IMG/VR virus record: IMGVR_UViG_3300027816_000119
Span: 1 to 56,378 of that record
Reading direction: 5' to 3' (one strand)
Source: a virus
Taxonomy: Duplodnaviria; Caudoviricetes
DNA: 56,378 nt
Positions 4,306 to 34,234 of the stretch are shown one piece after another. Under the pieces are notes generated by a model that saw only the letters and a program-made list of their open reading frames with translations, was not told the origin of the DNA and made no database searches. Both the position numbers and the translations under genes were made by a program. Position 1 is the stretch's first letter. Each line of letters starts with the position of its first letter.

Positions 4306-7300
4306 TTAGTTATTAAATGGGTTTCTAACATCATCTCCTGTTAAAGCATATGGTTTTCTATTTTTATCCAGTTTCCATGATGCGGCATTATGATCATAAG
4401 CTGCATTGTTTATATTACCTATTTTTGACCAACTAGTCTCACCTGCAGGTTTGTACCATATCATATTGTTATATACATAAGTTACATTCTTATTCTTTAA
4501 TTTTTTTGCAATGTTATAAAAATGTTCTTTTGTTTGTGCTACAGTCATTAACAAGTCAATACTATTAGCTGCCCTTAAATATACATCCTTTGTATTTGTT
4601 AGATTTTTAGATTTTAAAATATTATCTATAGGAGTGTTAAATGTCATAGGTACTTCAGCATAATCTATGTTATAAGCTTTTTTATTCTTAGCATGTTCTT
4701 TAAATGATTTTACTTGATCTGGAATATCAGTAGCAATCACTTTAATTTTCTTTTGTTTTATTTTTGGGTTTTGTGTTAACTCCCATACAGATACACCAGC
4801 AAGTTTTGGATCAGAATTTCCTAATGCAGATCCTATATCAATAATAACAGAGTTAGGTTTAGCCATATCAGCAAAGAATTTTTCTGAGTCAACATTTCTT
4901 TGAACATCCGTTCTATTAGCAATGTCTCTACCCCTACTCATAAATTTACTATAGCGTTCATAATCTTTTTGTTGTCTACCTAGCCATTCTTGATCAACTA
5001 ATTGTGAACTAATACTATTGTCAAAAACAGGAGGTTTTTCTTCAACAGTTTCTTTTGAAGATATATCTTTAGTTAATTTACTCATTGCATCCCAAAGAGA
5101 TAGTTCAGGATCTGGTTTTAAATCAAGAGATGTATTTTCAATACCTTGACCTCTTTGACCATATTCTGCAAATTGAGCAGCACTATTATTACCTAATGGT
5201 TGTTGAGAAGGTTGTCTTGTTAATGATGGTGGAGCACCTGCCATATTTGATTGTGTTAATTGAGCTCTTAGAGCTTCCATATCATATGGCTCTATAACTT
5301 GTTTTTGTTGTACTTCAGGTTTTGCAAACTTTTTAAGTTGATCCATTTTATTTGGAAATAACTTATTCATATCAATTGTAGGTGCCGAAGGTGTTTGTTT
5401 CGCACTATATGGAGAATAACTAACATCTGCTTCTTTTAAAAAGTCTACTACACCTAAGTTATTTAGATTATTAACTTTAGTTTTTGCTTCTTGTTCTGAA
5501 ATTTTTGACATCCTATTAATCCAAGAGTCATAAGCAGTAGACACAGCATCTCCTACTTTATCAATATAAGGAGATGCAAACTTAGATAATGCATCAAATT
5601 GTTCCATTATTGTAGTTCCTTTCTTAGGTTTAGGACCTGGTTTTTTAGGAGCACTTACATTCTTTTTATTAGCAAATAATTCTGGATACTTAAATATTAA
5701 TCCTTCTCTAGTACCTACTTTTTGTTTTACTAAGTCATCTAAGCTATTACCTTGTTTTACTAAAGCAAATACCATTTGATCATATGGAGTAACTGTAGGA
5801 GTAGATTTTGTATCTACTATTTTAGGTTCTCCAAATTCACCAGCCTGAAGTCTTTTAACAAGAGCTAAGTTTTGTTCCATAGTTCCATCAGTAAGACCTT
5901 TAGCTTTTGCTTCAGACCAAGGGGTTCCTGTATATTGATACCATATATCAGATGGTGTACCACCATTAGCCATCATAGGAACAGATACTTCTTCAACATT
6001 ATATCCGTTATTTAAATAGTGTTGAATTTTATCTTCTGGAATATCTAATTCTATATAATCATTTGTAGCTCCACCTTGTTTATAAGGATTATGAACATCA
6101 AAAATAAATCTTGGTGACTCACTTCCAAAACCTTTTGTATTAACTCCAGATACTTTGTAACCTAACTTAGATGGTAATAATAATTCTTGTTCATCAACAT
6201 ATTGTGATCCTGTATACATATTAGGCCTAAAAGCACTTTGTCCTTCAGGAACATTTATAATAGCTACTTTAGATGTAGGATCACCACTTCCCCAAACATT
6301 GCCTGTCATATCAGTAGTTGTACTCCAATTATGTTCTGGATATATTACATCTCCTTCAAGTAAATCATCATAATTTAACATAAGTTCCTGATCACCTCTC
6401 ATTGTTTTAACAGGTCTATTAAAACTAGATGTTCTTCTAACTTGAGCCGGTGCTTTAAGTTTATTAGCCCCTATGACTGGTTCAATTTGATTAGATAAAT
6501 ATTCTGCAAACTGTTTATTACCACCATAACCAGGATTCTTATTAAAGTAACCAGAGTATTCTAACTGATAAGTATCACCTAAAAACTTTTGTTGATTAGT
6601 TAAATCATTTTCTAAACCAGTTGATTTAGCAAATTCATCATCAACTAAAAATCCTTCATTAGACTTTAATTTTCCTACATCATCATGTGCACCAAATACT
6701 AATATTTCATCATCCTTTCCTTTACCAAATTGTTTTTCAAACTTTGGTTTATATTCTTTCAATAATGCATTTGCTTCATTTTTAGCTTGCATAAAAGATT
6801 CTTCAGTTGGAAATAATTCTGGATAAGCTTCATTAGCAGCCTTAAAATTTTTATAACCTTTAGCATGTCTTAACTCTTCAATATTTCTATACTTACTAAG
6901 TATACTACCTTGCGGCTTACCTTTGGTCAATGTTTTAAATCCTTTACCTACATCACTAACTAAATCACCAGCTTTAGCAAAAGTTCCTGCAGTTCTTAGT
7001 CCGCTTAAACCAGGTGCTATTAAACCAGCAACACCAATTGCATCCATTGTTTCATCAAAACCCTCCCCATAGTTAGAACCCGTAAGAGGATTAACACCCA
7101 TGTCAAATTTTCCAGTATTAGCATAGTTATATACACCTTGTCCTAAACCAAGAGGTAGTGTAGTTATATCTCCCATACTTTGACCAACACCTTTTAATGT
7201 GCCTAACGGATCTTCATATACTCTATGTGCTGATGCTATACCAGAAAGTTCAGCAGCAGCATCTCTTACTAAATTAAAGTTTTCAGTTTTTCTAGCGTTA

Positions 7301-9939
7301 GCCTCATCTACTGCATCTTGAAATTGTCCTTTGTAACCTTCCTTCATTAGATTAGAATCAAATTTATCCCAACCTTTTTTCTCATATTCCATTCTAAATT
7401 TAGTACTGGCACTTGGATCTTTACTGTTTTGTGCTTTTTCTCTAGCTTTTTCATACTCAGCTCTATCAGCTGCTTCTTGTTTTCTTTTTTTCTCAGCATC
7501 TTTAAGCTCTGTATTAAAATCACCTTTAAGTCTTTTAACTTCTGATTTAAACTTTTTAATACCTTCTCTATTATAAACAGCGGGTTCTATGTCTCCTTGA
7601 ACACCTGCAATATAACCAACACCCTTACCCAACTCTTCAGCTTCTTTAGTAAGTTTACCAATGTCTTTTCTAAAGAAATCTTGTACTTTTCTTTTAAAAC
7701 CTTTTTTACCAGCCTTAACATCAACGTCACCAAAATCTTTGTAAATTAATCCAGTTGTTGGATCAACATTACTACTACCACTATATCTTTGTGCTGGTGC
7801 AATCCATTGACTCTTAGGAGATCCCCCATTATTAAATCTATTTAAATTAGATGGATAAAAATTATCAAGTTGTTCTACAATATATCCACCATTTATATAT
7901 TTATAAATTTCACTTTCTGGTATGTCTAATTCTATATAATCATTTATTACACCACCTCTTCTATGTATATCTAATGGTACATTACGATCATGATCTCTTA
8001 ATAATTGAGGAATAGATACCTTTTGGTTTTTATCCAGCATCCTAATACCTTGATTACTTACTATATTATAATTTGATCTTATTTCGTGTGGTAGTCTATT
8101 AGACATATAGTGTCCTGAAGTATTTAAATCATATATATTAAATTTACCTGTTCGTGGATTAAATAGAATATTATCTGTATTTTGAAAATCTACATATAAA
8201 CCACTATCTTGTAAATCTTTAATATCTTGAACTAGTTGTTCATAACTACCTCTTCCAACACCCTGCGTAGTATATTGTCCTTTATTACTAATGTCTAATG
8301 TATTACCTGCTTCTTCTTTAAGTATGTTATACCTTGTACCTGTATCATCAACTTTATTCATTACAGTAGCATATTGTTCAGGGTTCTCCCAACTGACATT
8401 ACCCGTTGATAACTTTTGATATCTGATTGGAATTGCAATATTACTTCTATCTCTAAGAGATTTACCTTTTTCAATTAATTCATCTAAGTTTTCATCTCCC
8501 GGAATTCTACCTATTTTTACAACTTTATTAGATCCTGGTATGCTAAATACTTTGCCAAAACTTCCTGAACCTAATTCTTCTTCAAAAGGTGAATACTTTT
8601 TAATTCTATAAGCATCTATTTTTGCATCAACTGTATTCAAATCCATTATAAACTTATCTGCTTTTAAGGAGTGCTCTTTTTGTAATTGTTGTCCAAGTTC
8701 ATAATCTCCTTTAGCTTCAGCTTCTTTTATTTTTTTATTAATCTCTATTGTCTCTTTATTTCTGTTTTTGACTATAAGTTCTTTTTCTTTTCTAAATTGC
8801 CTTGGTATTTTTGTTTTATTTGAATATATTTTCTGAAACTCAGTTAACTGATCTAAGTCAGCAACTTCTGGATCCCATACTTCTTGATATCCTTTTTTCC
8901 AATGAGGAACTTCTCCTGGATTATGAAACTTACTATTATTTCCTAGTACCTTATAAGTATGTTTTAAAGGTGTTTTTGTAGTAAGAAATTTACCAGCATC
9001 AATAGCTAAGTCTGTATTTTTAGTAAACTTTGCTAGTTTACCAGCTGCACCAATTCCTGGTATTACACCAAGAGCATCAAATGTTTCACTTGCACCTTCA
9101 CCATAATTTGCACCAGTAAGTGGATTGATACCCATATCAAAATCACCTTTAGTTGCATAGTTATAAATACCTTCTCCTAAACCTACAGGTAAAGTAGCTA
9201 CATCACCAACAGTTTGTGCAACACCTTTAGCTGTACCAAGAGGATCTGTTAATACTCTATAACCAGCACCTCCACCTAAAAATTCTAACGCAGTATTAGT
9301 AACACCCATGTTAGCTTCTTTTCTAGCATTGGCTTCATCTACTGCATCTTGGAATTGACCTTCATATCCTTCTTTCATTGTAGCAGGATCATAGTTAGCC
9401 CAACCTTTTTCATTATACTGTTGAGCAAACTTATCAGTAGACATCTTTCCAGACTCTTTTTTCTTTAAAGCTTTTTCATATTCTTTTCTATTTCTTTCTT
9501 CAGCTTCATAACCTTTTTCAGCATTCTTGACATCTTTTGTAAACTTATCAAGACCTGCTTTAGTAAAGTTAACAGGTTCAAGGGCTTCACCCGGCATACC
9601 AAAATAAGCACCAGCATTCTTTCCTAAATTTCTTGCTACATCAGCTCTAGTCTTACCGCCTCTTAAAATATAGTCAGAAAACTTTTTACCTTTCTTAGCT
9701 GATGCTTGAACTTGAGGAAGATTTTTAGTACCACTACTATCATAACCACCATACATTCCTGTATAAGAATCTGCAGCTTGCACATTACCTGTGCCCCAAT
9801 TATATTGTACGCATTTTCCAGAAGCATCTCTTATCTGTCCTCTAGGACATGGAGCACCACCTGGAGCAAACTTATTTAATACACCACCTGTTCTATATGT
9901 AGGAGCCTGAGGTAAGCCTACTATTCTAAACTTTTTCAT
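4306..9939 (-). CDS. Multidomain effector polyprotein: carrier module + kinase-like, carrier module + ADP-ribosyltransferase, C-terminal SAM methyltransferase
   Basis: GSGSFGKV/VVKI/DFQNTDNIL/IYDL kinase motifs; R..STT..EQE ART motifs; IIDIGSALG/IATDI/RAANSI MTase motifs; internal ~250-aa duplication; lies downstream of muzzle gene. Confidence 0.75.
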   Translation of the reverse strand: MKKFRIVGLPQAPTYRTGGVLNKFAPGGAPCPRGQIRDASGKCVQYNWGTGNVQAADSYTGMYGGYDSSGTKNLPQVQASAKKGKKFSDYILRGGKTRADVARNLGKNAGAYFGMPGEALEPVNFTKAGLDKFTKDVKNAEKGYEAEERNRKEYEKALKKKESGKMSTDKFAQQYNEKGWANYDPATMKEGYEGQFQDAVDEANARKEANMGVTNTALEFLGGGAGYRVLTDPLGTAKGVAQTVGDVATLPVGLGEGIYNYATKGDFDMGINPLTGANYGEGASETFDALGVIPGIGAAGKLAKFTKNTDLAIDAGKFLTTKTPLKHTYKVLGNNSKFHNPGEVPHWKKGYQEVWDPEVADLDQLTEFQKIYSNKTKIPRQFRKEKELIVKNRNKETIEINKKIKEAEAKGDYELGQQLQKEHSLKADKFIMDLNTVDAKIDAYRIKKYSPFEEELGSGSFGKVFSIPGSNKVVKIGRIPGDENLDELIEKGKSLRDRSNIAIPIRYQKLSTGNVSWENPEQYATVMNKVDDTGTRYNILKEEAGNTLDISNKGQYTTQGVGRGSYEQLVQDIKDLQDSGLYVDFQNTDNILFNPRTGKFNIYDLNTSGHYMSNRLPHEIRSNYNIVSNQGIRMLDKNQKVSIPQLLRDHDRNVPLDIHRRGGVINDYIELDIPESEIYKYINGGYIVEQLDNFYPSNLNRFNNGGSPKSQWIAPAQRYSGSSNVDPTTGLIYKDFGDVDVKAGKKGFKRKVQDFFRKDIGKLTKEAEELGKGVGYIAGVQGDIEPAVYNREGIKKFKSEVKRLKGDFNTELKDAEKKRKQEAADRAEYEKAREKAQNSKDPSASTKFRMEYEKKGWDKFDSNLMKEGYKGQFQDAVDEANARKTENFNLVRDAAAELSGIASAHRVYEDPLGTLKGVGQSMGDITTLPLGLGQGVYNYANTGKFDMGVNPLTGSNYGEGFDETMDAIGVAGLIAPGLSGLRTAGTFAKAGDLVSDVGKGFKTLTKGKPQGSILSKYRNIEELRHAKGYKNFKAANEAYPELFPTEESFMQAKNEANALLKEYKPKFEKQFGKGKDDEILVFGAHDDVGKLKSNEGFLVDDEFAKSTGLENDLTNQQKFLGDTYQLEYSGYFNKNPGYGGNKQFAEYLSNQIEPVIGANKLKAPAQVRRTSSFNRPVKTMRGDQELMLNYDDLLEGDVIYPEHNWSTTTDMTGNVWGSGDPTSKVAIINVPEGQSAFRPNMYTGSQYVDEQELLLPSKLGYKVSGVNTKGFGSESPRFIFDVHNPYKQGGATNDYIELDIPEDKIQHYLNNGYNVEEVSVPMMANGGTPSDIWYQYTGTPWSEAKAKGLTDGTMEQNLALVKRLQAGEFGEPKIVDTKSTPTVTPYDQMVFALVKQGNSLDDLVKQKVGTREGLIFKYPELFANKKNVSAPKKPGPKPKKGTTIMEQFDALSKFASPYIDKVGDAVSTAYDSWINRMSKISEQEAKTKVNNLNNLGVVDFLKEADVSYSPYSAKQTPSAPTIDMNKLFPNKMDQLKKFAKPEVQQKQVIEPYDMEALRAQLTQSNMAGAPPSLTRQPSQQPLGNNSAAQFAEYGQRGQGIENTSLDLKPDPELSLWDAMSKLTKDISSKETVEEKPPVFDNSISSQLVDQEWLGRQQKDYERYSKFMSRGRDIANRTDVQRNVDSEKFFADMAKPNSVIIDIGSALGNSDPKLAGVSVWELTQNPKIKQKKIKVIATDIPDQVKSFKEHAKNKKAYNIDYAEVPMTFNTPIDNILKSKNLTNTKDVYLRAANSIDLLMTVAQTKEHFYNIAKKLKNKNVTYVYNNMIWYKPAGETSWSKIGNINNAAYDHNAASWKLDKNRKPYALTGDDVRNPFNN

Positions 9940-9941
9940 AT

Positions 9942-12900
9942 TTAAATTTCTTCAAATGTATAACCTAAACCTAAACTTTCTAAATATCCTTTAGTATCTT
10001 CATCTACTTCATCACCTAATTGGTAATCAGTCTCACCACCTTCTTCTTTAATTATTAAATTATAACCTGGTGTACCTTCTCTTCCTAAATCTTGATGATA
10101 ATAACTTTCAAAATCTTGTTTAGTAAGACCACCTGGATTTAATCCATAGTACTCATATCTACCATTATCTAAATGAATATATTGAGCATCTTTATTTTTC
10201 TTCAAAAAGTCATTTACTAAATCTACACCTTTTTTACCAGATGTTATATAAGCAAATTCAGCTTTCTTAGTTGATGGTGAATACAATATAAACTTACCTG
10301 TGTTAGGTGTATTCTGATAAATAGGATCTCCGTTTTTATCCAAGAGTCTCATTTCATTACCATTCATTATTGCTTTATCTATATTCTTAGCTCCAAATCT
10401 TCTTGGTACTATTTCAGTATCTGGATCAAATTCATTTGCTTTACCTACTTTAAATTTACCATCTTCTATTCCATAGAAAGATTCAATTTTATTAGATGGA
10501 TACTTTTTATCTGAATATGTATCTGTAGCAGTTAACCAATCTTTAGCCTTTCTAACTGTATTATTAGCATCCTCTATAAACTCACCACCGATTATAATTT
10601 TACCATCTTTTGTTTCATTAACTTTAGCAAAATCCATAGGGGTATTAGTTATATCAATAAGTGTATCTTTAGAACTTAAACCTCCAGGTACACCTGTAAC
10701 TCCAACATTTTTTAAAATTTTATTTTTAATCGGGGGTGGTGAAAAAGCTGTTCCAAAAACAGCAGCGGCTCCAGGATAAGCTGATCCTACTAAACCAGCT
10801 ATTGTGTAATCAGTAGCATTCCAGTTTCTTCCTCCATAAAGTATTGGGTTTACTCTACTTCTATTACCTGTAGTAATAGCTTCATTTAAATGTTCATCCA
10901 TGTAGTTAGGTAAAGTCCAATCACTTCCATATTTATTTATTAAATCCGCATGTTCTTGAGAAAACTTTTGATATTCAGGTGAATTTTTATAAGCTAATAT
11001 TTCTTCTTCTGTTAAAGGTCCTTTTGGATATCTTTGAAATGCTCCTTTAAGATTTATAGAGTAGCCACTTTTTACTGGAGGAGGTGTACCACCTTCAATA
11101 GGAGCTTTTGGTTCTACTTGTAGTAATGATTCTTTATTATAACCTCTTTTACCAAAATCAAAATTACTATTCTTAAGTCTGTCTAATTCTCTTAACTGAG
11201 CTTCAGTAAGCATATCCCCTTGTTTCCTACCTGTTTCAATAAGATCATTATAAAACTTTCTATTAGCAAATGACATTTTTTTAGAATCATAACTATCTAA
11301 CAGTTGCTTATAGTAATTTAAATTTTTCTTAACCATATTACTACCACTACCACTTGGTCCTAGTAACATCATAGGTCCAGGAGGTCTATTAAAAAATTTA
11401 TTTACCATGTTTGATACAGGTGAATTAGGAGAGCCAGGTAATTGCTTAGACCATGTTTTACCTCCATCTAAACTATACTCTATATCTTTACCTTTAACAG
11501 CCGGATACTGACCCATAAAACCTAGATCCTTTTTACCTTTATTAGCAAATCTTAATAATACAGGTTTACCACCAGTTGCTTCTGCTGAGTAACCTGCAAA
11601 ATTTAAAGCATATCCACTATCTCCTGCAGCAGTTGTAAAACCTTTTCCTAATTTATCAGGCATCATACCACCTGTATTTACGGCATCACCTAAACTATTA
11701 TCCAATTCAGATGATAAAATATTTTTTAATCTAGCATCAGATGTACCGTGATATAAGTATTTAGGCACAGGAAGTTTTAAATCATTTTTTATTACTTCTG
11801 CAGCAGCTATAAGATTAGAATTTGAAAAACCAAATCCTTTATTACTATAAGTATTAAGTACCTCATTAACTGTTTTATTAGAACTTTTTGCAACTTCTTT
11901 TAAAAAGTCTGCTGCTTCTTGCTCTGTTTTAAAACTTGAGTTAGCTACAATATCATCTATATGTTTTTGTAGTGTAATGTCAGAAGCTCCTGAAGAATTT
12001 ATTTTACCTGTATTTTGAAAAGTTGATTTAACACCTTTACCTAAATCAGTTACAAGATCTCCTGCTTTAGTAAATTTTGATAATTTACTAATAGCATTTA
12101 TACCAGGTATAGCTCCAAGAACATCAAAGGTTTGATTAATACCACTACCATAGTTTTCACCTGTAAGTACATTTGTACCCATATCAAAATTTCCGGTATT
12201 AGAATAATTTACTGCACCTTCAACTAAACCTTGAGGTAATGTTGCAACATCAGCAACAGTTTTAGCTACACCTTCAGCAGTACCAACAGGATCGGCAACT
12301 ATTCTATATGCTCCGCCACCAAGTAGTTCTAATGCTGTATTAGTAACTCCCATATTGGCTTCTTTTCTTTTGTTAGCTTCATCAACAGCTTCTTGAAATT
12401 GACCTTTGTAAGCTTCATTCATTACATTGGGATCAAATCTATCCCAGCCTTTTTCTTCATACTCCATTCGGAATTTAGTTCCTGCACTTAAATCTTTACT
12501 ACTCTGTGCTTTTTTTCTTGCCTTTTCATATTCTTTTCTTTCTTTCTCTTCATTTTTATAATACTTGTTTTGTTCAGAAACTATATTATTTATATAACTT
12601 TTAAATCTTTTAATTCCTTCTTTAGTTGTATTTGTAGAAATTAACGGTTCATTAGCACCTATACCAAACTCTGAAGAATATTTTTTACCAAAGTCTTTCA
12701 TTTGTTCTAACCTGGTTTTACCACCTCTGAGAATCCAATCAGAAAGTTTCTTTCCTTTTTTAGCTTGAATATTAATACCACTTTTATTTTTAATCCATTC
12801 TTTTGAATTTCTATCATACTCCCATCCTTCTGCTTGTGGACCGATATGGTAATCCCAATCAACATCCACAAGATTCCAATCTAAGGGAACACATTCTCCT

Positions 12901-15473
12901 TTAGAATTTCTATAATATCCTCTACCACATGGAGAACCACCTTCTATAAATTTATCTAATGATCCACCATACTTTCCATACTGAATATCATCTTTATTAG
13001 AATCCTTCTTAGCAATAAGATTAAATAACCTCATTAAGCTTTCATCATCTTTTGCTGTTCTAAATAATAAGTAAATATCTTGATTAAAGTTTTTATTATC
13101 TTTATCAAGCATTCCTTTTTTCTCAGCCTCCTCTCTCATCTGATTCAATCTCTCTGGAGTAATTACCTCATCAGGTTTAAGATTAAATTTCTTTCTAGCC
13201 ACATTAAGATATGATTGAATATTCTGTTCTTCTGGATTTATTATGTAATCATAAAATTGTTGTTTTTCTTTTGGCCAAGTTTTATCAAAAGGAATTATAT
13301 TTTCTTTTACAATTTTGTCATACATAGGATACAACTTGTCTCTCACAGGTTCCATAAGATAATTAGTTAACTCATGTCTTTCTGTATCAGACTTTTGTTC
13401 AGGTGTAAGTTCTGGACTAAAATATATTTTTGGAACTTTTCCACTTGTGTCATACATTCCAACTGCTCGGAAACCTCCTATATTTTCTTGCGTATATTCC
13501 TCTGGCATTGTTTCATATACTGGGAATGATTGCATTTGTTTAAGCATAGGTGATTCAGGATTGTATGCTGGTAATGCTTTTTCTACAACCTTTTTAAAAC
13601 TAGGTTGATCTTCTGGAAAATCTATTTTTCTATTCTTATACCATTCAACCATCCATCTTTGATCTTCTGTCATATTCTCTTCAGACAGAGGAATACAACC
13701 AAGTTTTGGATCATAAGTATAACCATCATCACATGGAGAACCACCTGCTATAAATTTATGTAATGACCCACCAAGTTCTTGCTTATATGGACTCATAAAT
13801 TGACCTGGATCATTTGGTCCTTTTTTTAAATATACATTATTAGCAGGATTTTTATTTACAATACCATCAGGTAACATGTTTTGATTAGAGAGTTCTAATA
13901 AAGCATTTGTCTTATCTCTTGAGCTCATAGGTAATATACCTACACCAGCACCAACAGCATTATTTAGTATATCTTCACCAGACTCTGTAAATTTAACCAA
14001 CCATGGTCTATCATCATTAAATATAGTTTCTAACTCATGACCTACACCCATTGCATTAGCACCTAAAAAACCAGCAGCTTGCGGTATACCTGTGTATTGT
14101 GCCCAGTCTGGAAAATAATCCATAATTGCTTCAGCTGCATATCTACCACCTTGAGGATGTCTAAAATTATCTATAGGATCATCATCTTCTTTTGCAGCAC
14201 CATAAGCAGACATAGCTGCTTTGTCCATAGGATTATCTAAAGCACTATTTATTTTATCCTCAAAGCTATTACCTCTATATAAAATTTCTTGAGTTGAACC
14301 AGGATCATATAGTTCTATTTCTTTTATTTCTCTTAGCAATCCTGCTGCTGTTTCTTGATCAGCAAGTAAAGGTGAATTTTTTAATTTCTCATATTGCTCA
14401 ACTAACTTTTGATAATAAGAACTAAATGTATCAGTTTTTTTGTTAGCTTTTTTAGCTGCAGCTTTAGCTTTTTTAGATGCTTTTATTGTAACTTCTTTAA
14501 GATTTTGTATATATGTAGGATTGTATGATCTTTTAGGAATAGTCTTGTCTAAATATTTTTTAAATTCTTCATCTGAATTATTTTCTAATATTCTTCTTTT
14601 TTCATCCTGTAATAAATACAATGGAGTATAATCAACTAATGCATTTTCACATCTTTTAGTATATGGATTCCATACTTGACCTTTCCCACATGGTTTATTT
14701 GAACCACCTCTATCATAATCAACTAAGCCACCATCTTCATAATATTTTGCATTAGGATCATAAATTCTATTCTTTACTTTCTTAGGTTTAAATAATTTAT
14801 TTTTTACAAACAGTTTATTCTTACCAAAAATACTTTTTGTGTACTTCATAGAATTTAAACTACCACCCTTACGGAACTGCTCTCCTACAGATCCTAATGC
14901 AGCTATTACTTCAGGCTTATCATCAAAATGCTTTTCTACTCCAAGTTGTTTTACTTTACGTACCTTAGCTTCATCTGAACCAGTAGCTATAATATTTTCA
15001 ACTGGAATGCCTGCTTGTCTAGCTCGGGCAATCATATCTGGTGTTACTTTATCTCTGGCAGATACAATAAAAAGATTATAGCCATCTCTAAACATTTTCT
15101 TAGCTTTAGCTAAACCTTCAGGTGTTGCAATAGTTTTATCAAAGTCAAAAGATGCATATTTACCTTTACCAAAATCTTCTGGCTGCTCCATCTCTGAATG
15201 CTCTCTATAATTAGCTGTAAGTTCTGAACCAGCGGGGATATTTTTTAAAGCTCTTAGGTATCTTTTATCTCCTATTACTTCATTACTAGTATTAAAGTTT
15301 TTTTCATCATGATTATAGAACTTACCAAACTGATTTGGTACAAATCTTATTCTATCATTATCTATAGGAATGCCAGAGTGTACGGGTAATATTAGTTCAC
15401 CCTTTTTAATTAGTTCTTGAGTAAATAAACCTTTACCATGTATCTTGGACTTTCCAACTTTTACTTTCTTCAT
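9942..15473 (-). CDS. Multidomain effector polyprotein: SET, HAD-like, DNFRH/DILNN domain, degenerate zincin, carrier module, HGT-type ART-like, C-terminal unknown domain
   Basis: SKIHGKGLF..NH..GSELTANY (SET); FDFDKT..VSAR..FDD (HAD); HELTN; LYHGTS; third copy of carrier module. Confidence 0.75.
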   Translation of the reverse strand: MKKVKVGKSKIHGKGLFTQELIKKGELILPVHSGIPIDNDRIRFVPNQFGKFYNHDEKNFNTSNEVIGDKRYLRALKNIPAGSELTANYREHSEMEQPEDFGKGKYASFDFDKTIATPEGLAKAKKMFRDGYNLFIVSARDKVTPDMIARARQAGIPVENIIATGSDEAKVRKVKQLGVEKHFDDKPEVIAALGSVGEQFRKGGSLNSMKYTKSIFGKNKLFVKNKLFKPKKVKNRIYDPNAKYYEDGGLVDYDRGGSNKPCGKGQVWNPYTKRCENALVDYTPLYLLQDEKRRILENNSDEEFKKYLDKTIPKRSYNPTYIQNLKEVTIKASKKAKAAAKKANKKTDTFSSYYQKLVEQYEKLKNSPLLADQETAAGLLREIKEIELYDPGSTQEILYRGNSFEDKINSALDNPMDKAAMSAYGAAKEDDDPIDNFRHPQGGRYAAEAIMDYFPDWAQYTGIPQAAGFLGANAMGVGHELETIFNDDRPWLVKFTESGEDILNNAVGAGVGILPMSSRDKTNALLELSNQNMLPDGIVNKNPANNVYLKKGPNDPGQFMSPYKQELGGSLHKFIAGGSPCDDGYTYDPKLGCIPLSEENMTEDQRWMVEWYKNRKIDFPEDQPSFKKVVEKALPAYNPESPMLKQMQSFPVYETMPEEYTQENIGGFRAVGMYDTSGKVPKIYFSPELTPEQKSDTERHELTNYLMEPVRDKLYPMYDKIVKENIIPFDKTWPKEKQQFYDYIINPEEQNIQSYLNVARKKFNLKPDEVITPERLNQMREEAEKKGMLDKDNKNFNQDIYLLFRTAKDDESLMRLFNLIAKKDSNKDDIQYGKYGGSLDKFIEGGSPCGRGYYRNSKGECVPLDWNLVDVDWDYHIGPQAEGWEYDRNSKEWIKNKSGINIQAKKGKKLSDWILRGGKTRLEQMKDFGKKYSSEFGIGANEPLISTNTTKEGIKRFKSYINNIVSEQNKYYKNEEKERKEYEKARKKAQSSKDLSAGTKFRMEYEEKGWDRFDPNVMNEAYKGQFQEAVDEANKRKEANMGVTNTALELLGGGAYRIVADPVGTAEGVAKTVADVATLPQGLVEGAVNYSNTGNFDMGTNVLTGENYGSGINQTFDVLGAIPGINAISKLSKFTKAGDLVTDLGKGVKSTFQNTGKINSSGASDITLQKHIDDIVANSSFKTEQEAADFLKEVAKSSNKTVNEVLNTYSNKGFGFSNSNLIAAAEVIKNDLKLPVPKYLYHGTSDARLKNILSSELDNSLGDAVNTGGMMPDKLGKGFTTAAGDSGYALNFAGYSAEATGGKPVLLRFANKGKKDLGFMGQYPAVKGKDIEYSLDGGKTWSKQLPGSPNSPVSNMVNKFFNRPPGPMMLLGPSGSGSNMVKKNLNYYKQLLDSYDSKKMSFANRKFYNDLIETGRKQGDMLTEAQLRELDRLKNSNFDFGKRGYNKESLLQVEPKAPIEGGTPPPVKSGYSINLKGAFQRYPKGPLTEEEILAYKNSPEYQKFSQEHADLINKYGSDWTLPNYMDEHLNEAITTGNRSRVNPILYGGRNWNATDYTIAGLVGSAYPGAAAVFGTAFSPPPIKNKILKNVGVTGVPGGLSSKDTLIDITNTPMDFAKVNETKDGKIIIGGEFIEDANNTVRKAKDWLTATDTYSDKKYPSNKIESFYGIEDGKFKVGKANEFDPDTEIVPRRFGAKNIDKAIMNGNEMRLLDKNGDPIYQNTPNTGKFILYSPSTKKAEFAYITSGKKGVDLVNDFLKKNKDAQYIHLDNGRYEYYGLNPGGLTKQDFESYYHQDLGREGTPGYNLIIKEEGGETDYQLGDEVDEDTKGYLESLGLGYTFEEI

Positions 15474-18400
15474 TACCTTGGAGAATATTGATTTTTAGTA
15501 TTAAATATTTTCAAGATCATATTAGTATCTCTTGAATTTACTTTAGCTAACTTAATAAAATTTAAGTAATGTCTAAACTTTTTTCTCTGTAATTGATTTT
15601 TATTTATATCAATATTCTGATAGTTGATAGTTTTAATATAACCATTAGGTGCAGTTATCCATAAATTTTCTTGTCTATAAGAACCAGATAAAATTGTTGT
15701 CCCAGGTATTACAGGATTTGTAGGAGGATAGTCTGGTAACTGTTGAGGAGAAGGATAAGGAAATTCTCCACGGTCTTTTACTGAATCCCAGAATTGATTA
15801 AATCTATATTTGTTTTCTTCTTTAGAAAATAAAATATCAAATCCAGCTTTTGGTGTAATTGTAGGATCAATAAAAATTGAATTGTTAACTTTTGGATATT
15901 GTAAGTTTAGTGGTGGATTATTCTTAGCATAAATATTTAATTTCAAATATGGTGATATTTGTTCTGTATTATGAATTACAGCATAATCAAAATTATAATC
16001 TAGTACATGAAATTGATCTACACAGTTTTCTTGGTTTCTTTTATAACATTCTAAAACATATTCTACACTTTTTAAAGTAGTAACAGTTTGACCAGTTACT
16101 ATTGGAAACTCAACTTCAAATGGATACTGCGTCCCATAAAAATTACAATAGTCATTACATTCAATATTATGAGCCCAAAATTCATCAGCTCTTGTACTTA
16201 CAATTGTACTCTTAGTAGGTAAAGTAAGATCTGGATGCCAGTCATGAAATGAAATCCAAAATCTATTTTTAGGGTCATAACTTGCTGTCCATGAAGCATC
16301 TTCAAATATTGCAGGATCTCCTAAAATATAAATTTTATTTCCTTGTAAAGGATCCATAGTATCTAGAAAATAACTTTCAGTAGGTGTACTTATATATTGA
16401 ATTCTATTTGGATTTTGTGGTGTATTAAAACCATCTATCAATTTATAATCTTTTTTACAGAAATATAATACTGAATTTTCATTATCATAAATAGCTTGAC
16501 ATCCAATACCGGCTACAGGATTATCAGCATAATCATATTCTGGAAAATCTTCTAATAACTTAGATGGTAAAAATTCATCAAACCACCATTTCATTCCTGA
16601 TTGTGATATCTCTGTTATACCTTCATTATAAGTAAATATTTTACCTTGATTTTGTGATATATAATAAATACCAGCCGGTGTAGATATAACAGCCAATCTA
16701 CTTTGAGATGAACCATACTGATATGGTTTATCTGTAACAACTAGATTTTGAGCTTCTCTTGCAAATAACCCACCATCTCCTACAGTTACTTTAACACCTG
16801 AACCATCAAGTTGTAATTGATCAACTCCTTGAAATACTTGAGGGCCATCATTTTTAAATGTAATAAGAGCTCCGGTTCTAGCAAAGTTTTTAACTGAACT
16901 AATTTGACTAATAAAATCTTTACGGTTATTAGGTAGAAAAATAAACCATGCATCTTCTACAGAGCCTTGAACAAAAGGTAAAGAATAAGTAATAACATTA
17001 GGAAAATATGTATAACATAAACTTGCTACCTTAGGATCATAGTATCTATTTTGTAATGCACCAAATGTTAAAAATTTACTTGGTAATCTTGATGCACTTA
17101 AAGATAAATCATAAATATAAAAATTACCTCTTGTAATAATTATAGGATCCATTTTAAATAACTGTTGTAAATCAGTGTATCTATATGGATGATAACATTT
17201 TTCAAAATCAAATGTACCTACTTCTCTAAAGTCAAGAAGTATATCTGTTTCTACATAAAAGTCTCTTACTCCAGACACAGAAGTATAAAAGTATGAATTT
17301 CTAGGAATCCAAAATCCAGGATAAGGTGTAGCATCATCAGTAGAATGATCATAATTTATACTTTCTAGATTATAAAAATCTGTAGGAAATAGCCCAGTAC
17401 CCGGAGCAGCTGCTGTTGTTATTCCTAAAAAGTCAGATAAGTTTTCTACAGATATATTAGAAAAATCATAGTGTGTACTATTCATCCAGTATCTTGCTTG
17501 AGGAAGCATTTGATTTACAAAATAGTTATATTCAAAATCATCTGCTACTCCATACAACCAGTTATAAAACATCAACATTATATTCTTTTCTGTAAATCTA
17601 CATATGTATGTATCACCTCCAAAAAAGATATCTGTTTGAGCAATTAGTTTGTAGTAATAAGTTTGAGGAGTTGGTATAGGATCATTTAGTGTTGCTACAC
17701 TAGGTTGTATAAAATTACCTAAAAGTGCTGGACTATAGTCTTTTATCAAAGTACCAAAAGCATCTCTCTTTTGTTCACAAGGAGTAATTACTTGTTGCTT
17801 TATAGAATCTAACTGGCCGTATTGATTTTTTAAAGTTACTTTTATAGCACCATAGTGACTAGCTATTTTTGTTTGAAACCCAATTGTCTTTTTATCTTCC
17901 TCATCAATTTTAGGACCTAATCCTCCTACGTCTGCATGATACAGTGTAATTGAAGATTGATCCTGAGCATTACTAATTTGTTGAGCTAATGTAGTACCTG
18001 AAGTTAAAAAGCTTGGTCCTGTTGTAGCACCAGTATTTGCTTGAGCTGTTCTTAATACAACCAACTTGGGTCTAAAAATATTTTGTATTGTATATTTTTT
18101 AATTGTGCTTGTAGTAGTATCAATATAATCTGGAATTTCTTGATTGGTATCATTAATAACATATAGTGAATCTTCTACTTTAAATCTATATAGTTCACCT
18201 GGTTTTCTAGGATCAAATCTATCATAGTAACCATGACCAATTTGTTGTAATGCATATTGCTTTAATGGAGCAATAGCATATAAAAATTCATTAGCTGTTT
18301 TTAATCCTTGTGCAAAGAAAAAAGCAAAATTTTGTAGACCACCTAAAAATGCTAACCAAGGTGGTAACATCTGAGATTGAGAAAGTTCATTTGTATAAGT

Positions 18401-20875
18401 TATACCATTGTATGTTGCACCTGCAGTTTTATATGCAGCATTATGCGCTCTAAATATATTATCTAATGTATCTATACCTGATATACCATTACCAATAAAA
18501 CCTAAACCATTATAATAAGCAAGTAATGCTGCATTAAATGTATTATTAGCTCCTGTAGTTGCTAAAGGTGTTAGTGGTTGTAAATTTTGAGATAAAGGTG
18601 AAGAGGTTCCTGACACAAATGGAAGTTGTCTAATTTGTGTATAACTACCTTGAGGATAGTTAATTTGTTTTTTACCACCATTAGCTAATATACTGTAACC
18701 AAGAGCATACATCAACATTGCCCAAAAAGATGCATCACTAAGTAATTTATTTTTAGGATGTCCTGCTGGTTCAATAAATTGTTGTTGAGCCAATCCTGAA
18801 ACATGACCATATATTTTTAATTCACTTATTGCTAAGTAAGGATTTCTAAAACTTGTTTCTGGTGAATGAAATGATATAATCTCTTTTGGAATATCTTGAT
18901 TTTGATAAACTAAGTTTGTATCTACTTTCTTTATATAGGGATCATTATATTTAAAATTACGTCCTCCACTTGGACTATTCCCATAAGGATAAATAGAATT
19001 AAATGGAAAGTTTGCATACAAACCAGTTCTTGTGTTTGCAGCAACTCCTTGAATAACATAATCTCTAAAGTTATTAATCATTCCTTTAGCAATTATAGTT
19101 CTATTACCTTCTCTTGAGCCTACAAGAATTTCATAACCTACAATATTTGTAATTATGTTACCTTCATTATCAACAGGAGTTTGGATATTTTTAAATCTTA
19201 CTCCCATCAATCTTATTTTCATAGCATCTGTTAAAGGATCTCTTTTAAAATGATATGTTCTATCTGATAAATTATTGTCAGGAAACTTATGATGTCTTAT
19301 AGGTAGGCCACATAAATCATAATCAATACTTGGTGTCTGATATTTATTTGTCCATGGATGATAACTTGCATTCCAAATATCAGGTCTGTTATCAGGATAC
19401 TTTTCAGTTTCTGCTTGCCAATAACCCATATCACCATAAGCAATTACTTTTCCACCATCAGGTAATAGTTGTGTAGCTGCACTTAATTGTGAAGCTGTAT
19501 TTATTGTTTCAAATAAAAAAGTATCTCCTGGTAAAGTATTATCATCTGAATATGCTACTAAATCTGGACCTTTAGGGGGTCTTCCTGGAATATGATATGA
19601 AGCTGATTTATCTCCTGTATCATATACCCATCTGATAAAAAATGCATAAACTTCATCTCTTAAATAACTTGTTTTACTACCTCCTTTAAAATAATAATCT
19701 GAAGGATATTCAACAGAGACCCACTCAGCTCTAATTAAGTTAGCAAGAGGTTGATAATTAAAATCAAATTTAGAAGTCGGACCTATTCTAAGTAAATAAT
19801 TATTTAACTGAACTATTTGATCAGATTTTTCAAATACTGGTGTTTGTCTTACAATATCAAAATCATCTACATCAACTGCACTTACTTTTATTTGATCAAT
19901 ATATATTGATGTTGTTCTTGTAGAATATAATCCAATTTGTTTAGCTATAATACCTTCATTTACAAAAGCTATTACAATTAGAACAAACTCATCAAAGTTT
20001 TCAGAATCTGCTGTTAGGTTTAATTGTAAAGAACCCTGACCATTATCAGGAGTATACACTGCTTGAACATTACTTGGAGCAAAATAGTCTGTTACTTTTT
20101 GTCCTTTTATAGTATATGCAATAGCTGCATAATAAGAACCATTACTTAATGAACCAGAACTATCTCCTCTAAATAATTCTAAACAAGGAGTTTCCATTAG
20201 TCTTGCAAGTCTAATATTATCACAGTCTAAAAAAGGTGTATCAAAACAAAACTCACAAGCTCCTGTAGTACAATCTTGTATCCAAGTTACTCCTGGCCAT
20301 TGAGTACTTTGAGAAGGATCTGCTGTAAAAAAATATTTATTAGGATTTGCTGCTCCTCCCCATGTATAACCTTTTATAGGCCATGTTTCAGGATCTCCTA
20401 CATTTAAGAATCTATCTGGATTTTTTCCATCTGCCCAGTATACTTGCCAAGTACAATCTTCTTTTTCTCTTGAAGCTCCTGAAATTAAATTAAATCTACT
20501 AAAGTTTAAACATGCATCTACAACAATTGGAAAGTATTGACAAGAACTTTCTATAAATAAACCTATCTCAGAATTTGATGATCTCTTAGTTTTTTTTGTT
20601 TGATGAGCTGCAGTAAATACAATCCAATAATCAGAATATAAATTTATAAGACCTATTATGTATTTATAACCAACCATTGTTTGACCGGCTTTAGTACATA
20701 AGGTATTTGATCTTTCATTAGATAATGTACCTAAGTCACCTTCTGCCGTATTGTTTACAACATTACGGGCATGTGTCCACATACCTTCTTGTACAAATGA
20801 AGGATCAGAATCTTTATTAAGACCCTTGACAAAGGTGTTTGTTTGATTTTGTGCTTGATCTTGACTTTTTGCCAT
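15473..20875 (-). CDS. Tail muzzle/stabilization protein (P22 gp10-like, crAss-type)
   Basis: 1800 aa; N-terminal FVKGLNKD, YLRDEVYAFFIRW, PIRHHKFPD, FFGGDTYI, C-terminal WISFHDWHP; follows ring genes as in crAss-like phages. Confidence 0.75.
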   Translation of the reverse strand: MAKSQDQAQNQTNTFVKGLNKDSDPSFVQEGMWTHARNVVNNTAEGDLGTLSNERSNTLCTKAGQTMVGYKYIIGLINLYSDYWIVFTAAHQTKKTKRSSNSEIGLFIESSCQYFPIVVDACLNFSRFNLISGASREKEDCTWQVYWADGKNPDRFLNVGDPETWPIKGYTWGGAANPNKYFFTADPSQSTQWPGVTWIQDCTTGACEFCFDTPFLDCDNIRLARLMETPCLELFRGDSSGSLSNGSYYAAIAYTIKGQKVTDYFAPSNVQAVYTPDNGQGSLQLNLTADSENFDEFVLIVIAFVNEGIIAKQIGLYSTRTTSIYIDQIKVSAVDVDDFDIVRQTPVFEKSDQIVQLNNYLLRIGPTSKFDFNYQPLANLIRAEWVSVEYPSDYYFKGGSKTSYLRDEVYAFFIRWVYDTGDKSASYHIPGRPPKGPDLVAYSDDNTLPGDTFLFETINTASQLSAATQLLPDGGKVIAYGDMGYWQAETEKYPDNRPDIWNASYHPWTNKYQTPSIDYDLCGLPIRHHKFPDNNLSDRTYHFKRDPLTDAMKIRLMGVRFKNIQTPVDNEGNIITNIVGYEILVGSREGNRTIIAKGMINNFRDYVIQGVAANTRTGLYANFPFNSIYPYGNSPSGGRNFKYNDPYIKKVDTNLVYQNQDIPKEIISFHSPETSFRNPYLAISELKIYGHVSGLAQQQFIEPAGHPKNKLLSDASFWAMLMYALGYSILANGGKKQINYPQGSYTQIRQLPFVSGTSSPLSQNLQPLTPLATTGANNTFNAALLAYYNGLGFIGNGISGIDTLDNIFRAHNAAYKTAGATYNGITYTNELSQSQMLPPWLAFLGGLQNFAFFFAQGLKTANEFLYAIAPLKQYALQQIGHGYYDRFDPRKPGELYRFKVEDSLYVINDTNQEIPDYIDTTTSTIKKYTIQNIFRPKLVVLRTAQANTGATTGPSFLTSGTTLAQQISNAQDQSSITLYHADVGGLGPKIDEEDKKTIGFQTKIASHYGAIKVTLKNQYGQLDSIKQQVITPCEQKRDAFGTLIKDYSPALLGNFIQPSVATLNDPIPTPQTYYYKLIAQTDIFFGGDTYICRFTEKNIMLMFYNWLYGVADDFEYNYFVNQMLPQARYWMNSTHYDFSNISVENLSDFLGITTAAAPGTGLFPTDFYNLESINYDHSTDDATPYPGFWIPRNSYFYTSVSGVRDFYVETDILLDFREVGTFDFEKCYHPYRYTDLQQLFKMDPIIITRGNFYIYDLSLSASRLPSKFLTFGALQNRYYDPKVASLCYTYFPNVITYSLPFVQGSVEDAWFIFLPNNRKDFISQISSVKNFARTGALITFKNDGPQVFQGVDQLQLDGSGVKVTVGDGGLFAREAQNLVVTDKPYQYGSSQSRLAVISTPAGIYYISQNQGKIFTYNEGITEISQSGMKWWFDEFLPSKLLEDFPEYDYADNPVAGIGCQAIYDNENSVLYFCKKDYKLIDGFNTPQNPNRIQYISTPTESYFLDTMDPLQGNKIYILGDPAIFEDASWTASYDPKNRFWISFHDWHPDLTLPTKSTIVSTRADEFWAHNIECNDYCNFYGTQYPFEVEFPIVTGQTVTTLKSVEYVLECYKRNQENCVDQFHVLDYNFDYAVIHNTEQISPYLKLNIYAKNNPPLNLQYPKVNNSIFIDPTITPKAGFDILFSKEENKYRFNQFWDSVKDRGEFPYPSPQQLPDYPPTNPVIPGTTILSGSYRQENLWITAPNGYIKTINYQNIDINKNQLQRKKFRHYLNFIKLAKVNSRDTNMILKIFNTKNQYSPR

Positions 20876-20876: not shown

Positions 20877-21899
20877 TTACATTATTCTTGATCTCCAAAA
20901 AGGTTGATTATAAAAAGGACTTGATGGTGAATATGATTTAAACATATCATAGTATTTACTATACTGAGCTTTTCTATTTGTCCACCAAAGTTTTTCTAAT
21001 TCTTTAAAGTTAGGAGTATTAACCAAACTCATTGCATTGTTTCTTGCTGATCTTAATCTTTGTTCTATGATCTGAATTCTTGCACCTACATCTTCACCAT
21101 TCATAAGTAAGTTTTCAAGAATTCTTTGTTTAAAGGCATACTCATAGTATTCATTTAAAAGATCATGATCTGGAACAAGTAAGTTTCCATCATCATCCTC
21201 AAGAGTACCTTGATAGTTTAAATAAACAGTACCTGTATTAAATGTAGTATAGAGATATCCATACTTTATCCAACCTTGGTTAGCTGTATTAAAATATAAG
21301 TTTGGACAGTTACAATCAATCTCTTGACTTGCTTTCATCCTAAGAGGTACCAGAGACTTATATATTCTAGTTTGAGAAGGATTAATATACTGAACTAACT
21401 CATATGCTTCTCCTTTACAGTTTAAGAAAACTCTTGGTTGTACTACTCTAGGAGGGATACATGTATCACCATATGGTTGTTCTGGATTATGTGTAACACA
21501 TATACCTTCTTTACCATTAAAACAACAAGGCTGATCTATAGGAGCCTCACAGCAATTAAGTGTTGTCTTTGCCGGAAATTCTCTATAAGGAACTTCTGCA
21601 ATATGAGTACCACTTGCATGACCATCATACCCTACAACAGTTTTATAATCTCCACAAATAAATGCAAAATTAAATGTATTAAAATCATCTGGTAGTTTAA
21701 CCTTACCATGATTAACTTCTAATAAAACTTCTTTAGTTTGATTTAACCTTAGACCTAATTCATAATTAAGTTTCTTAGCAAGTTTGATTAACTGCTGAGG
21801 CTCAATCATATTTTCTAAAGCAAAAGTATTAAGATCAATACTTACATCTTCCAGCAACTGGTCAAATGTTCTATATCTAAGTGTATAATTAAAATCCAT
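20877..21899 (-). CDS. Tail tubular/ring protein
   Basis: 340 aa, KVKLPDDF..G.VYLNY.G..DDDGNLLVPD pattern; directly upstream of muzzle gene. Confidence 0.6.
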   Translation of the reverse strand: MDFNYTLRYRTFDQLLEDVSIDLNTFALENMIEPQQLIKLAKKLNYELGLRLNQTKEVLLEVNHGKVKLPDDFNTFNFAFICGDYKTVVGYDGHASGTHIAEVPYREFPAKTTLNCCEAPIDQPCCFNGKEGICVTHNPEQPYGDTCIPPRVVQPRVFLNCKGEAYELVQYINPSQTRIYKSLVPLRMKASQEIDCNCPNLYFNTANQGWIKYGYLYTTFNTGTVYLNYQGTLEDDDGNLLVPDHDLLNEYYEYAFKQRILENLLMNGEDVGARIQIIEQRLRSARNNAMSLVNTPNFKELEKLWWTNRKAQYSKYYDMFKSYSPSSPFYNQPFWRSRIM

Positions 21900-22561
21900 T
21901 ATCTAAGTACATTTTGACTATCATCACCTGAATCAGGCGGCATTTGAGTAGTCATGGTTAATTCTTTTAATACAAAGTTTTCTGCTTCAGTAAATAAATA
22001 TTCTGGAATATTTAAAAGTTGTTGTTGCATTGTCATACATTCTTCTGTATTACAATCATCAACATCATTTTCAAATATAGCTTCTATTCTTACAGCATCC
22101 CAATCAATATTAGGAGCATATAGATAACCATTAAGATACCAGAAGTATGGTCTCTTATTATATTTAAAAGTTGTAGATTTACTTATAGAAATCCAAGTAC
22201 CTGGATCTGTTCTAAACATTTCTATACCCCCATCTATAGAAGATACAGTACGGATAATAGGACCAAACATACCGTCAAGTATTGTTGGAAGTTTATCTTT
22301 AGATCTTTTAAAATAGCAGTAAGAGTACACTCCTACACATCCTGCTTCAACTTTATCAACATCAATAAGTTCAACATAAGGTAGTACCTTAAATATTGAA
22401 CTCATCTTCATTAATCTAAATTGATTATCTTCTCTTTTAATAAGTGTCTTTGCATACTTACTTAATAGAAAATATATTTGTCTATCAGTTAAGAACGGAT
22501 CTTCCTTAACTGCTTTTAGAGTATTTCTAACTCTTGATATTGCTTCAGCTATTGTGGTCAT
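21899..22561 (-). CDS. Tail ring/adaptor protein
   Basis: 220 aa, crAss-like synteny between IHF-like gene and tubular gene; RSKDKLP..YFWYLNGYLY..IEAIFE. Confidence 0.55.
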   Translation of the reverse strand: MTTIAEAISRVRNTLKAVKEDPFLTDRQIYFLLSKYAKTLIKREDNQFRLMKMSSIFKVLPYVELIDVDKVEAGCVGVYSYCYFKRSKDKLPTILDGMFGPIIRTVSSIDGGIEMFRTDPGTWISISKSTTFKYNKRPYFWYLNGYLYAPNIDWDAVRIEAIFENDVDDCNTEECMTMQQQLLNIPEYLFTEAENFVLKELTMTTQMPPDSGDDSQNVLR

Positions 22562-32371: not shown

Positions 32372-32662
32372 TTATTTTTTTCTTCTTACAGATCCACCTT
32401 TTTTCTTAATAGGTGCATATGGTGCAACTGTTCCAGTAGTCCATTGCTTACCAGCTGCAACATTAGAATAACCTTTTGTTTTACTTTGGTTATCAAGATC
32501 ATAAGCTTCTTGAGCTTTTTGTTCTTTAGGACCAAAGTCTCCAGTTGCACTATAAGGATCAGCTTCATTTCCAGGTCCTCCCATAAATTTCTTAACCAAT
32601 TTTGTTCTAGCTTCATTAGCTTCTCTAAAGAAAGTTAATGGATGTTTATTTGTCTTTTTCAT
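32372..32662 (-). CDS. Small basic protein with xxGG motifs (start revised to 32662)
   Basis: ATG at 32662 lies just after upstream stop; MKKTNKHPL..KFMGG..KKKGG. Confidence 0.7.
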   Translation of the reverse strand: MKKTNKHPLTFFREANEARTKLVKKFMGGPGNEADPYSATGDFGPKEQKAQEAYDLDNQSKTKGYSNVAAGKQWTTGTVAPYAPIKKKGGSVRRKK

Positions 32663-32663
32663 G

Positions 32664-33068: not shown

Positions 33069-33070
33069 AA

Positions 33071-33430: not shown

Positions 33431-33442
33431 GACTATATTAAT

Positions 33443-34007: not shown

Positions 34008-34009
34008 GA

Positions 34010-34234
34010 CTATTTACTAAAATTTTTAAGAACTTTCATTTGCTCTTCAGCAAGTTTTGAAATATCTCTCATCATATTTTTATCCTTACGGATATCCTCT
34101 GCTCTTTTTAGACAACTTAATGCAGATTCAACTTCCCATTTTCTCATTTCTGCTTTAGGAGTTGCAGAGATAGTCATACCTACAGAAGCTTTCTTTGCAG
34201 GTGCTTTTTTAGTTGTTGTTTTTTTAATTGCCAT
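34010..34234 (-). CDS. Small basic protein with H1-like N-tail
   Basis: MAIKKTTTKKAPAKKAS then helix. Confidence 0.65.
   Translation of the reverse strand: MAIKKTTTKKAPAKKASVGMTISATPKAEMRKWEVESALSCLKRAEDIRKDKNMMRDISKLAEEQMKVLKNFSK

Follow-up and report, generated by a model that had tools for sequence, protein, structure and literature searches.

Background

In crAss001, the genes that follow the muzzle gene encode cargo that is packaged in the virion and ejected (gp45 and gp46) and then polymerase-related proteins, and the part of the virion atlas that deals with this cargo places the N-terminal ~245 residues of gp45 inside the tail barrel, poised to exit first, and proposes only partial unfolding and an ordered exit (PMC10172136). 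It is an unsolved problem how podoviruses, and notably crassviruses, deliver packaged protein amounting to megadaltons by way of a narrow tail and across a Gram-negative envelope. Here we analyse a stretch of viral DNA of 56,378 bases (called the window below), a linear IMG/VR virus record (IMGVR_UViG_3300027816_000119) with a completeness estimate of ~47% which, judged from its sequence, is a fragment of a crAss-like phage genome. The element under study is a nine-residue, beta-prone strand followed by a basic patch that lies in front of the carrier modules of two giant proteins of the window, P0001 and P0002. The initial annotation of this DNA had likened such strands to TonB boxes, and had proposed that processed cargo pieces are pulled across the envelope by the TonB of the host or that the strand is a docking signal acting by beta-addition.

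Several described systems invite comparison. In the virion module, the gene of P0002 comes next after that of the muzzle protein, and this gene position is what the window shares with crAss001 gp45; there is no detectable homology, and the window proteins are twice as long, mosaic and provided with three carrier copies. The element may belong with the peptides that target or lead phage proteins packaged in the virion, and with crassvirus cargo. The capsid-targeting sequence of the T4 internal proteins and Alt is also a short conserved peptide, at the N-terminus of packaged and injected proteins, including enzymes of the ADP-ribosyltransferase type, but the sequences are unrelated and it is the phage motif of the window that is repeated internally. 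Group B colicins and pyocins are imported foreign proteins with a TonB box in a disordered translocation region close to the N-terminus; the phage motif lies in leaders predicted to be disordered and, in the homologue P0047, at residues 7-15, but most phage copies lie hundreds of residues inside the chain, and no receptor-binding domain is known. The TonB box of the Bacteroidota SusC-like transporters is a short beta-prone peptide in an unstructured stretch, as is predicted for the strand, often with basic residues after it, and two of the five strands described here fit L-x-E-V-x-[VI]-x-A, whereas the phage motif lacks the aliphatic run and lies inside giant proteins with neither plug nor barrel. 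Polymorphic toxin modules of the PT-TG and MafB type also place a conserved module before variable enzymatic domains. The leads to them were weak (Atlas 0.87 and 0.85), P0001 and P0002 had no match to PT-TG (PF14449) at E <= 0.01, and one of 21 module sequences reached E = 0.015 when scanned by itself.

Strand and basic patch before the carrier modules

The five peptides noticed in the initial annotation are encoded where it had placed them, on the minus strand, as confirmed by translation of P0001, P0002 and the small basic protein P0003:

9697-9723, minus strand: leader strand of carrier copy 1, NLPQVQASA (P0001 residues 73-81), followed by KKGKK at 9682-9696
7711-7737, minus strand: leader strand of carrier copy 2, DFGDVDVKA (P0001 residues 735-743), followed by GKKGFKRK
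12762-12788, minus strand: leader strand of carrier copy 3, NKSGINIQA (P0002 residues 896-904), followed by KKGKK
14478-14504, minus strand: strand NLKEVTIKA (P0002 residues 324-332), before a non-carrier domain, followed by SKKAKAAAKKANKK
34686-34712, minus strand: strand NLPEVNVTA (P0003 residues 64-72), followed by TKGKQTRASKAKPK

A Lys-rich run follows all five, where a Lys cluster had been claimed for most. That the strand precedes the carrier modules also stands, but not that it opens them, as it sits 59-105 amino acids upstream of the carrier core; in window copies 1 and 3 it is located after a Cys hairpin. The module is ~260 amino acids long, and its three copies in P0001 and P0002 are 46-51% identical. 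Because the three carrier strands occupy the same aligned position in these paralogous copies, they amount to one observation seen three times.

The strand is found well beyond the window. Alignment A1 combines the three window copies with 18 homologue modules, 28-80% identical to its first row, and a nine-residue motif, [NDQE]-[LI]-P-E-h-x-[AVI]-x-A (h, hydrophobic), runs free of gaps through all 21 rows. Position 1 is N, D, Q or E in 21/21 rows and position 2 is L, I, F or Y in 17/21; P occupies position 3 in 11/21 and E position 4 in 12/21; position 7 is A, V or I in 20/21, and position 9 is A in 17/21 and D, V or G in 4/21. Common forms are NIPEVKVRA, QIPEVEASA, ELPTMYASA, EIPEAFVSA, DIPEMQAYA and EAPETFAYA, all of which have a basic stretch and then a helix behind them. 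Within a given subtype, motif and core are a constant distance apart (59-61, 74-75, 85-90 or ~105 amino acids). With a matrix built from all A1 rows, a match of at least 10 bits was present 45-112 amino acids before the core in 20 of 22 train modules and 18 of 28 test modules (P0015 was mislabelled as train in this split), and in 11 of 1000 control windows of equal length from the same proteins. The strand thus shows the conservation in homologues on which the initial annotation had made its proposal depend, and a signal or docking reading therefore stays viable. In P0047, a homologue of 2213 amino acids, the motif occupies residues 7-15, so that it can be an extreme N-terminal element. Along the chains it begins at residue 73 in P0001 and 7 in P0047 but at 324, 735 and 896 in other instances, and it is predicted to be disordered.

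AlphaFold2 on A1 returned a mainly helical module with a long confident helix and a mean predicted local distance difference test (pLDDT) score of 56.1; the coiled-coil part of the carrier reached 80-90, and the first 43 residues, including the strand, remained under 50. On A4, an alignment of 14 rows only that takes in the N-terminus and the Cys hairpin, the mean pLDDT was 44.5, with a low-confidence hairpin at residues 35-45 and the strand unstructured. These models, poor as both are, make a short linear motif within a predicted disordered leader the most fitting description of the strand.

A matrix from the 18 non-window A1 rows was used to scan the 59 minus-strand open reading frames (ORFs) of the window (18,846 amino acids). 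NLPQVQASA ranked first (17.4 bits), NLKEVTIKA third (14.0 bits) and NLPEVNVTA fourth (12.5 bits), with one stray match in the terminase (14.7 bits). At 12 bits or more there were four window matches against a shuffle mean of 0.54, and none of 100 shuffles reached four; the strand pattern exceeds chance expectation in the window. Carrier strands 2 and 3 scored below 8 bits with this matrix and are placed by alignment position only; with the matrix from all A1 rows they reached 12.2 and 7.8 bits, respectively. At the NLKEVTIKA site, relatives carry NLKEFTITA or PAITLAPKPKP. The observation made in the initial annotation is real, and better founded than could be known at that stage.

A possible docking or threading leader

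We tentatively favour the view that strand and basic patch are the leader motif of a translocation module in mosaic cargo, by which the chain would dock or be threaded in the tail channel or the cell envelope. We read them as a leader signal because the giant proteins are laid out as passengers behind a delivery module and because the gp45 N-terminus is poised in the tail barrel, and the docking signal of the initial annotation survives here as the leading reading, although that the motif binds a partner, and which one, is what we infer. In such a scheme, a nine-residue beta-prone peptide, then a basic patch and then helices would form a disordered leader N-terminal to the helical carrier. The exposed strand would align with a beta-sheet edge of its partner, either during storage of the unfolded cargo chain in, or its exit through, the portal, tail barrel or muzzle channel, or on entry into the envelope; the basic patch may contribute an electrostatic contact, and the variable enzyme-like domains behind the carriers would be the passengers. 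A conserved, predicted disordered strand-plus-basic leader before every carrier copy offers a concrete short peptide to mutate, to cross-link and to seek in cryo-electron microscopy maps.

A number of points weigh against this view. No partner for the strand was identified, and no structure prediction sets the strand against anything; moreover, as both models are of low confidence, "disordered" may mean only "not modelled". The polar positions of the motif are highly variable, the KKGKK-[FL]-SD-[YW]-[IV]-LRGG stretch after the strand is better conserved than the motif, and 10 of the 28 test modules scored below 10 bits, mostly as recognisable variants such as NLSESTHYD. The P0003 instance may be due to chance, since the motif was absent from the five P0003-like ORFs that aligned over at least 60 amino acids (BLAST, with matches in 15 of 80 capsid-related loci). 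As for the described phages, the carrier profile had no match in crAss001 or in Leptolyngbya phage Lbo-JY46, and its comparison with crAss001 gp45 (hhalign) gave a probability of 0.2; the analogy with gp45 therefore comes down to gene position.

When crAss001 was scanned with the carrier-strand matrix, the best match was EYPSMFAYG (12.8 bits) at gp45 residues 554-562, directly after the portal-bound domain 425-552, and gp45 (L001:16988-19516) had a further match at residue 358 (11.2 bits). The gp45 region held four matches of at least 10 bits against a shuffle mean of 1.33, and 4 of 100 shuffles reached four. The protein is rich in aromatic-x-x-GG motifs.

Alternative explanations

The strand might have no partner at all. 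It could be one strand of a small beta mini-domain to which the upstream Cys hairpin also belongs, or else simply a spacer that the carrier has conserved, in which case the copies at P0002 324-332 and in P0003 would be chance look-alikes; we consider this unlikely, if the best of the alternatives. The Cys hairpin does come before the strand in many subtypes, at ~6 residues in some homologues, but subtypes that have no hairpin directly upstream (the APETFAYA type) retain the motif. The AlphaFold2 models contain a hairpin (residues 35-45) and, in the first of them, isolated beta-bridges (residues 7 and 27), yet both leave the strand unpaired and under pLDDT 50. Regarding chance, P0003 and the P0002 leader share no BLAST similarity and the stray match in the terminase is equally strong; on the other side, no shuffle out of 100 equals the four window matches at 12 bits or more, and both extra copies are also followed by a Lys run.

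A somewhat weaker candidate is a proteolytic maturation site, at which a phage or host protease would cut after [AVI]-x-A and before a basic residue, freeing or trimming the modules of a polyprotein; this we hold to be rather improbable. The small-x-small end of the motif is similar both to the -3/-1 rule for signal peptidase I and to the sites, (V/L/I)-x-A|S, at which assemblin-type capsid proteases cut, with A, V or I at position 7 in 20/21 rows and A at position 9 in 17/21, but D, V or G stands at position 9 in the four others, and the site is not preceded by the hydrophobic stretch that signal peptidase needs. The modules look fused, linker motifs occur also at real protein ends in homologues, and a cut in P0047 would take off a 15-residue propeptide, much as phage T4 trims its packaged internal proteins by propeptide removal. 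Nevertheless, Pfam and PHROGs disclosed no protease among the proteins of the window (~47% of the genome), the strings "cleav" and "proteoly" are absent from the crAss001 paper (PMC10172136), and no evidence was found for the "processed" cargo of the initial annotation.

Comparison with TonB boxes

The likeness to TonB boxes was measured against genuine boxes from one low-G+C Flavobacteriaceae genome (Polaribacter), found by a 16S probe scan and used as a stand-in, not as the phage host. In this genome xL[DE]E[VI][VI][VI]x[AG] stands directly before the plug in 29 of 30 Plug-domain loci, which bears out the Bacteroidota consensus cited in the initial annotation. A matrix of these 29 boxes scored its own boxes at 14.0-29.6 bits (median 25.3) and the three carrier strands at -7.3, -6.8 and -6.3 bits. 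The 18 homologue strands ranged from -20.9 to +1.7 bits, and NLPEVNVTAT and NLKEVTIKAS obtained 8.2 and 8.0 bits. At 7 bits or more the window had five matches against a shuffle mean of 2.4, with five reached in 11 of 100 shuffles. Where the box has its defining run of aliphatic residues, the phage motif has polar or aromatic ones, and P-E and A-x-A are conserved instead. In sequence, the carrier strands do not fit the transporter-type TonB box (-7.3 to -6.3 bits against at least 14.0 for genuine ones). Of the proposed likeness there remains a weak one, at ~8 bits, for NLKEVTIKA and NLPEVNVTA, and none for the three carrier strands and the family motif.

The family-wide motif, as far as sequence tells, is different from the TonB box, and this removes the sequence argument for TonB binding; such binding could occur all the same, because strand addition is sequence-tolerant and colicin boxes diverge too. 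Recognising the TonB-box likeness of the carrier strands as superficial avoids a tempting mis-annotation. That the strands act as functional mimics, the C-terminal domain of host TonB pairing with a leader in the periplasm and the proton-motive force helping to pull the cargo chain out, is in our opinion very improbable. Both NLPEVNVTAT and NLKEVTIKAS conform to L-x-E-V-x-[VI]-x-A, they rank second and third in the window proteome with the genuine-box matrix, and by eye they come near individual boxes such as LNEVVVTATK and LEEVTIRSKRKA; but the carrier and homologue strands fall far under the genuine scores, matches of at least 7 bits are not enriched, the family keeps P-E and A-x-A with the aliphatic run replaced, and the P0003-like relatives that were retrieved lack the P0003 copy. 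K or R often follows genuine boxes too, and the motif, whose surroundings are predicted to be disordered, can be extreme N-terminal (P0047), a placement similar to that of colicin and pyocin TonB boxes, which are disordered and near the N-terminus. Against this stand the cyanobacterial host of the nearest cultured portal relative and the fact that the comparison genome is a Polaribacter stand-in of our own choice. We give equally little credit to a variant in which NLKEVTIKA and NLPEVNVTA would be working boxes and the carrier strands diverged ones, with host TonB-ExbBD pulling multi-enzyme cargo, and perhaps DNA, across the periplasm. If true, the use of TonB-box mimics would mean colicin-style TonB parasitism by a phage ejectosome.

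The initial annotation assumed a Bacteroidota host. The closest cultured relatives of the portal belong to Leptolyngbya phage Lbo-JY46 (33% identity), whose host is a cyanobacterium, and to an epsilon-group crAss-like phage (28%), and the carrier module has no relative in the 185,579 species genomes searched; for these two reasons the host is not established. There was no TonB_C match within the virus record itself and no P0002 match in the phage collection searched. A complex prediction for the TonB C-terminal domain with P0002 290-370 gave scores of 0.01 and 0.00, the mark being 0.32 (inputs: A2, the domain from the stand-in genome, 29 rows; A3, P0002 290-370, 4 rows); run without controls, it counts neither way. 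No link between crassvirus cargo proteins and TonB was found in the titles and abstract openings of the papers listed, and the term "TonB" is absent from PMC10172136.

Two observations were made along with these comparisons. The top window match to the TonB-box matrix was ELSSVVVVSS (12.6 bits; 27234-27263, minus strand), in an unannotated virion-region ORF of 715 amino acids (26691-28838), which is probably a chance match, 27 of 100 shuffles yielding at least 11 bits. In the stand-in genome, one TonB-like gene is split across two overlapping frames (ORFs of 168 and 88 amino acids), by either a frameshift or a sequencing error.

Other short signals can be dismissed: a signal peptidase I site, as what comes before the strand is polar and rich in Gly (GMYGGYDSSGTK, NPTYIQ, EEPYVR), with no hydrophobic stretch; a sortase LPxTG or PEP-CTERM-like signal, as there is neither the Gly nor a membrane helix; and an outer-membrane-protein beta-signal, as the position is not C-terminal.

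Carrier modules and putative passenger domains

The cores of the three carrier copies, with their matches to a core profile built from the family, are:

8980-9501, minus strand: carrier core copy 1, P0001 residues 147-320 (profile match 1.3e-77)
6934-7482, minus strand: carrier core copy 2, P0001 residues 820-1002 (profile match 1.2e-68)
12027-12551, minus strand: carrier core copy 3, P0002 residues 975-1149 (profile match 3.1e-78)

One module copy, searched against 1.84 billion representative proteins, retrieved 51 at E <= 0.001, including 22 at E <= 1e-30, and a word-indexed search with the module retrieved 15 proteins; among the proteins gathered, the core profile recognised 66 carrier domains. 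Viral contigs searched with alignment A1 yielded seven loci, all from subtypes known already, and those searched with the N-terminal 130 amino acids of P0001 yielded no match. The carrier module had no match in Pfam or PHROGs, and a profile search of the Protein Data Bank returned a single match, to a coiled-coil chimera (E 0.7). An Atlas search gave leads only (0.85-0.88), under its lead level of 0.9.

P0001 and P0002 are, on prediction, mosaics, with an enzyme-like domain of another kind behind each carrier. Carrier copy 1 is followed by what reads by eye as a Gly-rich-loop, kinase-like segment, with a G.G.FG.V loop at 8548-8571. Behind copy 2 (6040-6927, minus strand) there is a weak ADPrib_exo_Tox match (E 0.0059), and behind copy 3 (11439-11996, minus strand) there are weak Tpt1/KptA (0.013) and PARP (0.03) matches, all under the curated cut-offs. 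Near the N-terminus of P0002, residues 49-89 match a SET domain above the cut-off (PF00856, E 3.2e-6), and a HAD-hydrolase-like segment, weakly matched (E 0.046), comes next; a virion cargo protein is here headed by enzyme domains.

The junctions between modules have recurrent features of their own. A motif DYIELDIPE..I..Y...GY.VE(E) occurs twice inside P0001, at residues 668-689 (7873-7938, minus strand) and 1295-1316 (5992-6057, minus strand); a motif of this type forms the extreme C-terminus of several homologues, and P0002 ends similarly (...GYTFEEI). The short N-terminal-like and C-terminal-like motifs of the junctions occur also at true protein ends in homologues, and the modules look like fused proteins with a retained C-terminal signal. 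An invariant LRGG (9655-9666 and 12720-12731, minus strand) is found 11-14 residues after strands 1 and 3 in the context KKGKK-[FL]-SD-[YW]-I-LRGG-K-T-R; ubiquitin-like-specific proteases and papain-like viral ones cleave at LRGG. The linkers also contain four Cys hairpins of the pattern GG.PC..G......G.C, three of them upstream of a strand motif:

9811-9849, minus strand: Cys hairpin (C-x2-G-x8-C) upstream of strand 1
12891-12929, minus strand: Cys hairpin before strand 3
14649-14690, minus strand: Cys hairpin before NLKEVTIKA
13695-13733, minus strand: fourth Cys hairpin

Distant homologues either have the hairpin just ~6 residues ahead of the strand or replace it by a zinc-ribbon-like element, CxxC...CxxC.

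Virion gene module of the window

All long ORFs of the window are on the minus strand, and the G+C content is 30-36%. A Crassvirales virion module was recognised through Pfam (muzzle, ring 1, ring 2 and major capsid proteins) and PHROGs (portal and terminase). Its genes and those of the proteins discussed above are:

41771-43978, minus strand: terminase (PHROGs)
39021-41765, minus strand: portal (PHROGs)
36015-37631, minus strand: crassvirus major capsid protein (Pfam)
34578-34901, minus strand: P0003, small basic protein of 107 amino acids (translation)
20877-22561, minus strand: ring proteins 1 and 2 (Pfam)
15473-20875, minus strand: muzzle protein gene (PF25731, E 4.2e-27)
9942-15473, minus strand: P0002, mosaic cargo protein of 1843 amino acids, immediately downstream of the muzzle gene
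4306-9939, minus strand: P0001, mosaic cargo protein of 1877 amino acids, next after P0002

A third giant ORF follows P0002 and P0001 and leaves the window at its end. Relatives of the capsid protein (36015-37631) are encoded by more than 602 IMG/VR stretches, which is a lower bound, and the 80 that were retained share 89-96% identity over the best segment. This is an abundant lineage, though one without a close cultured relative.

After the capsid genes there is a run of small, very basic proteins (32372-34901, minus strand), two of which match DUF5872 and DUF6321. Many of them carry K-x-GG-S/T motifs, as found in the linkers of the giant proteins, and P0003 resembles a miniature linker, with KYYAGG, then the strand and then the Lys run.

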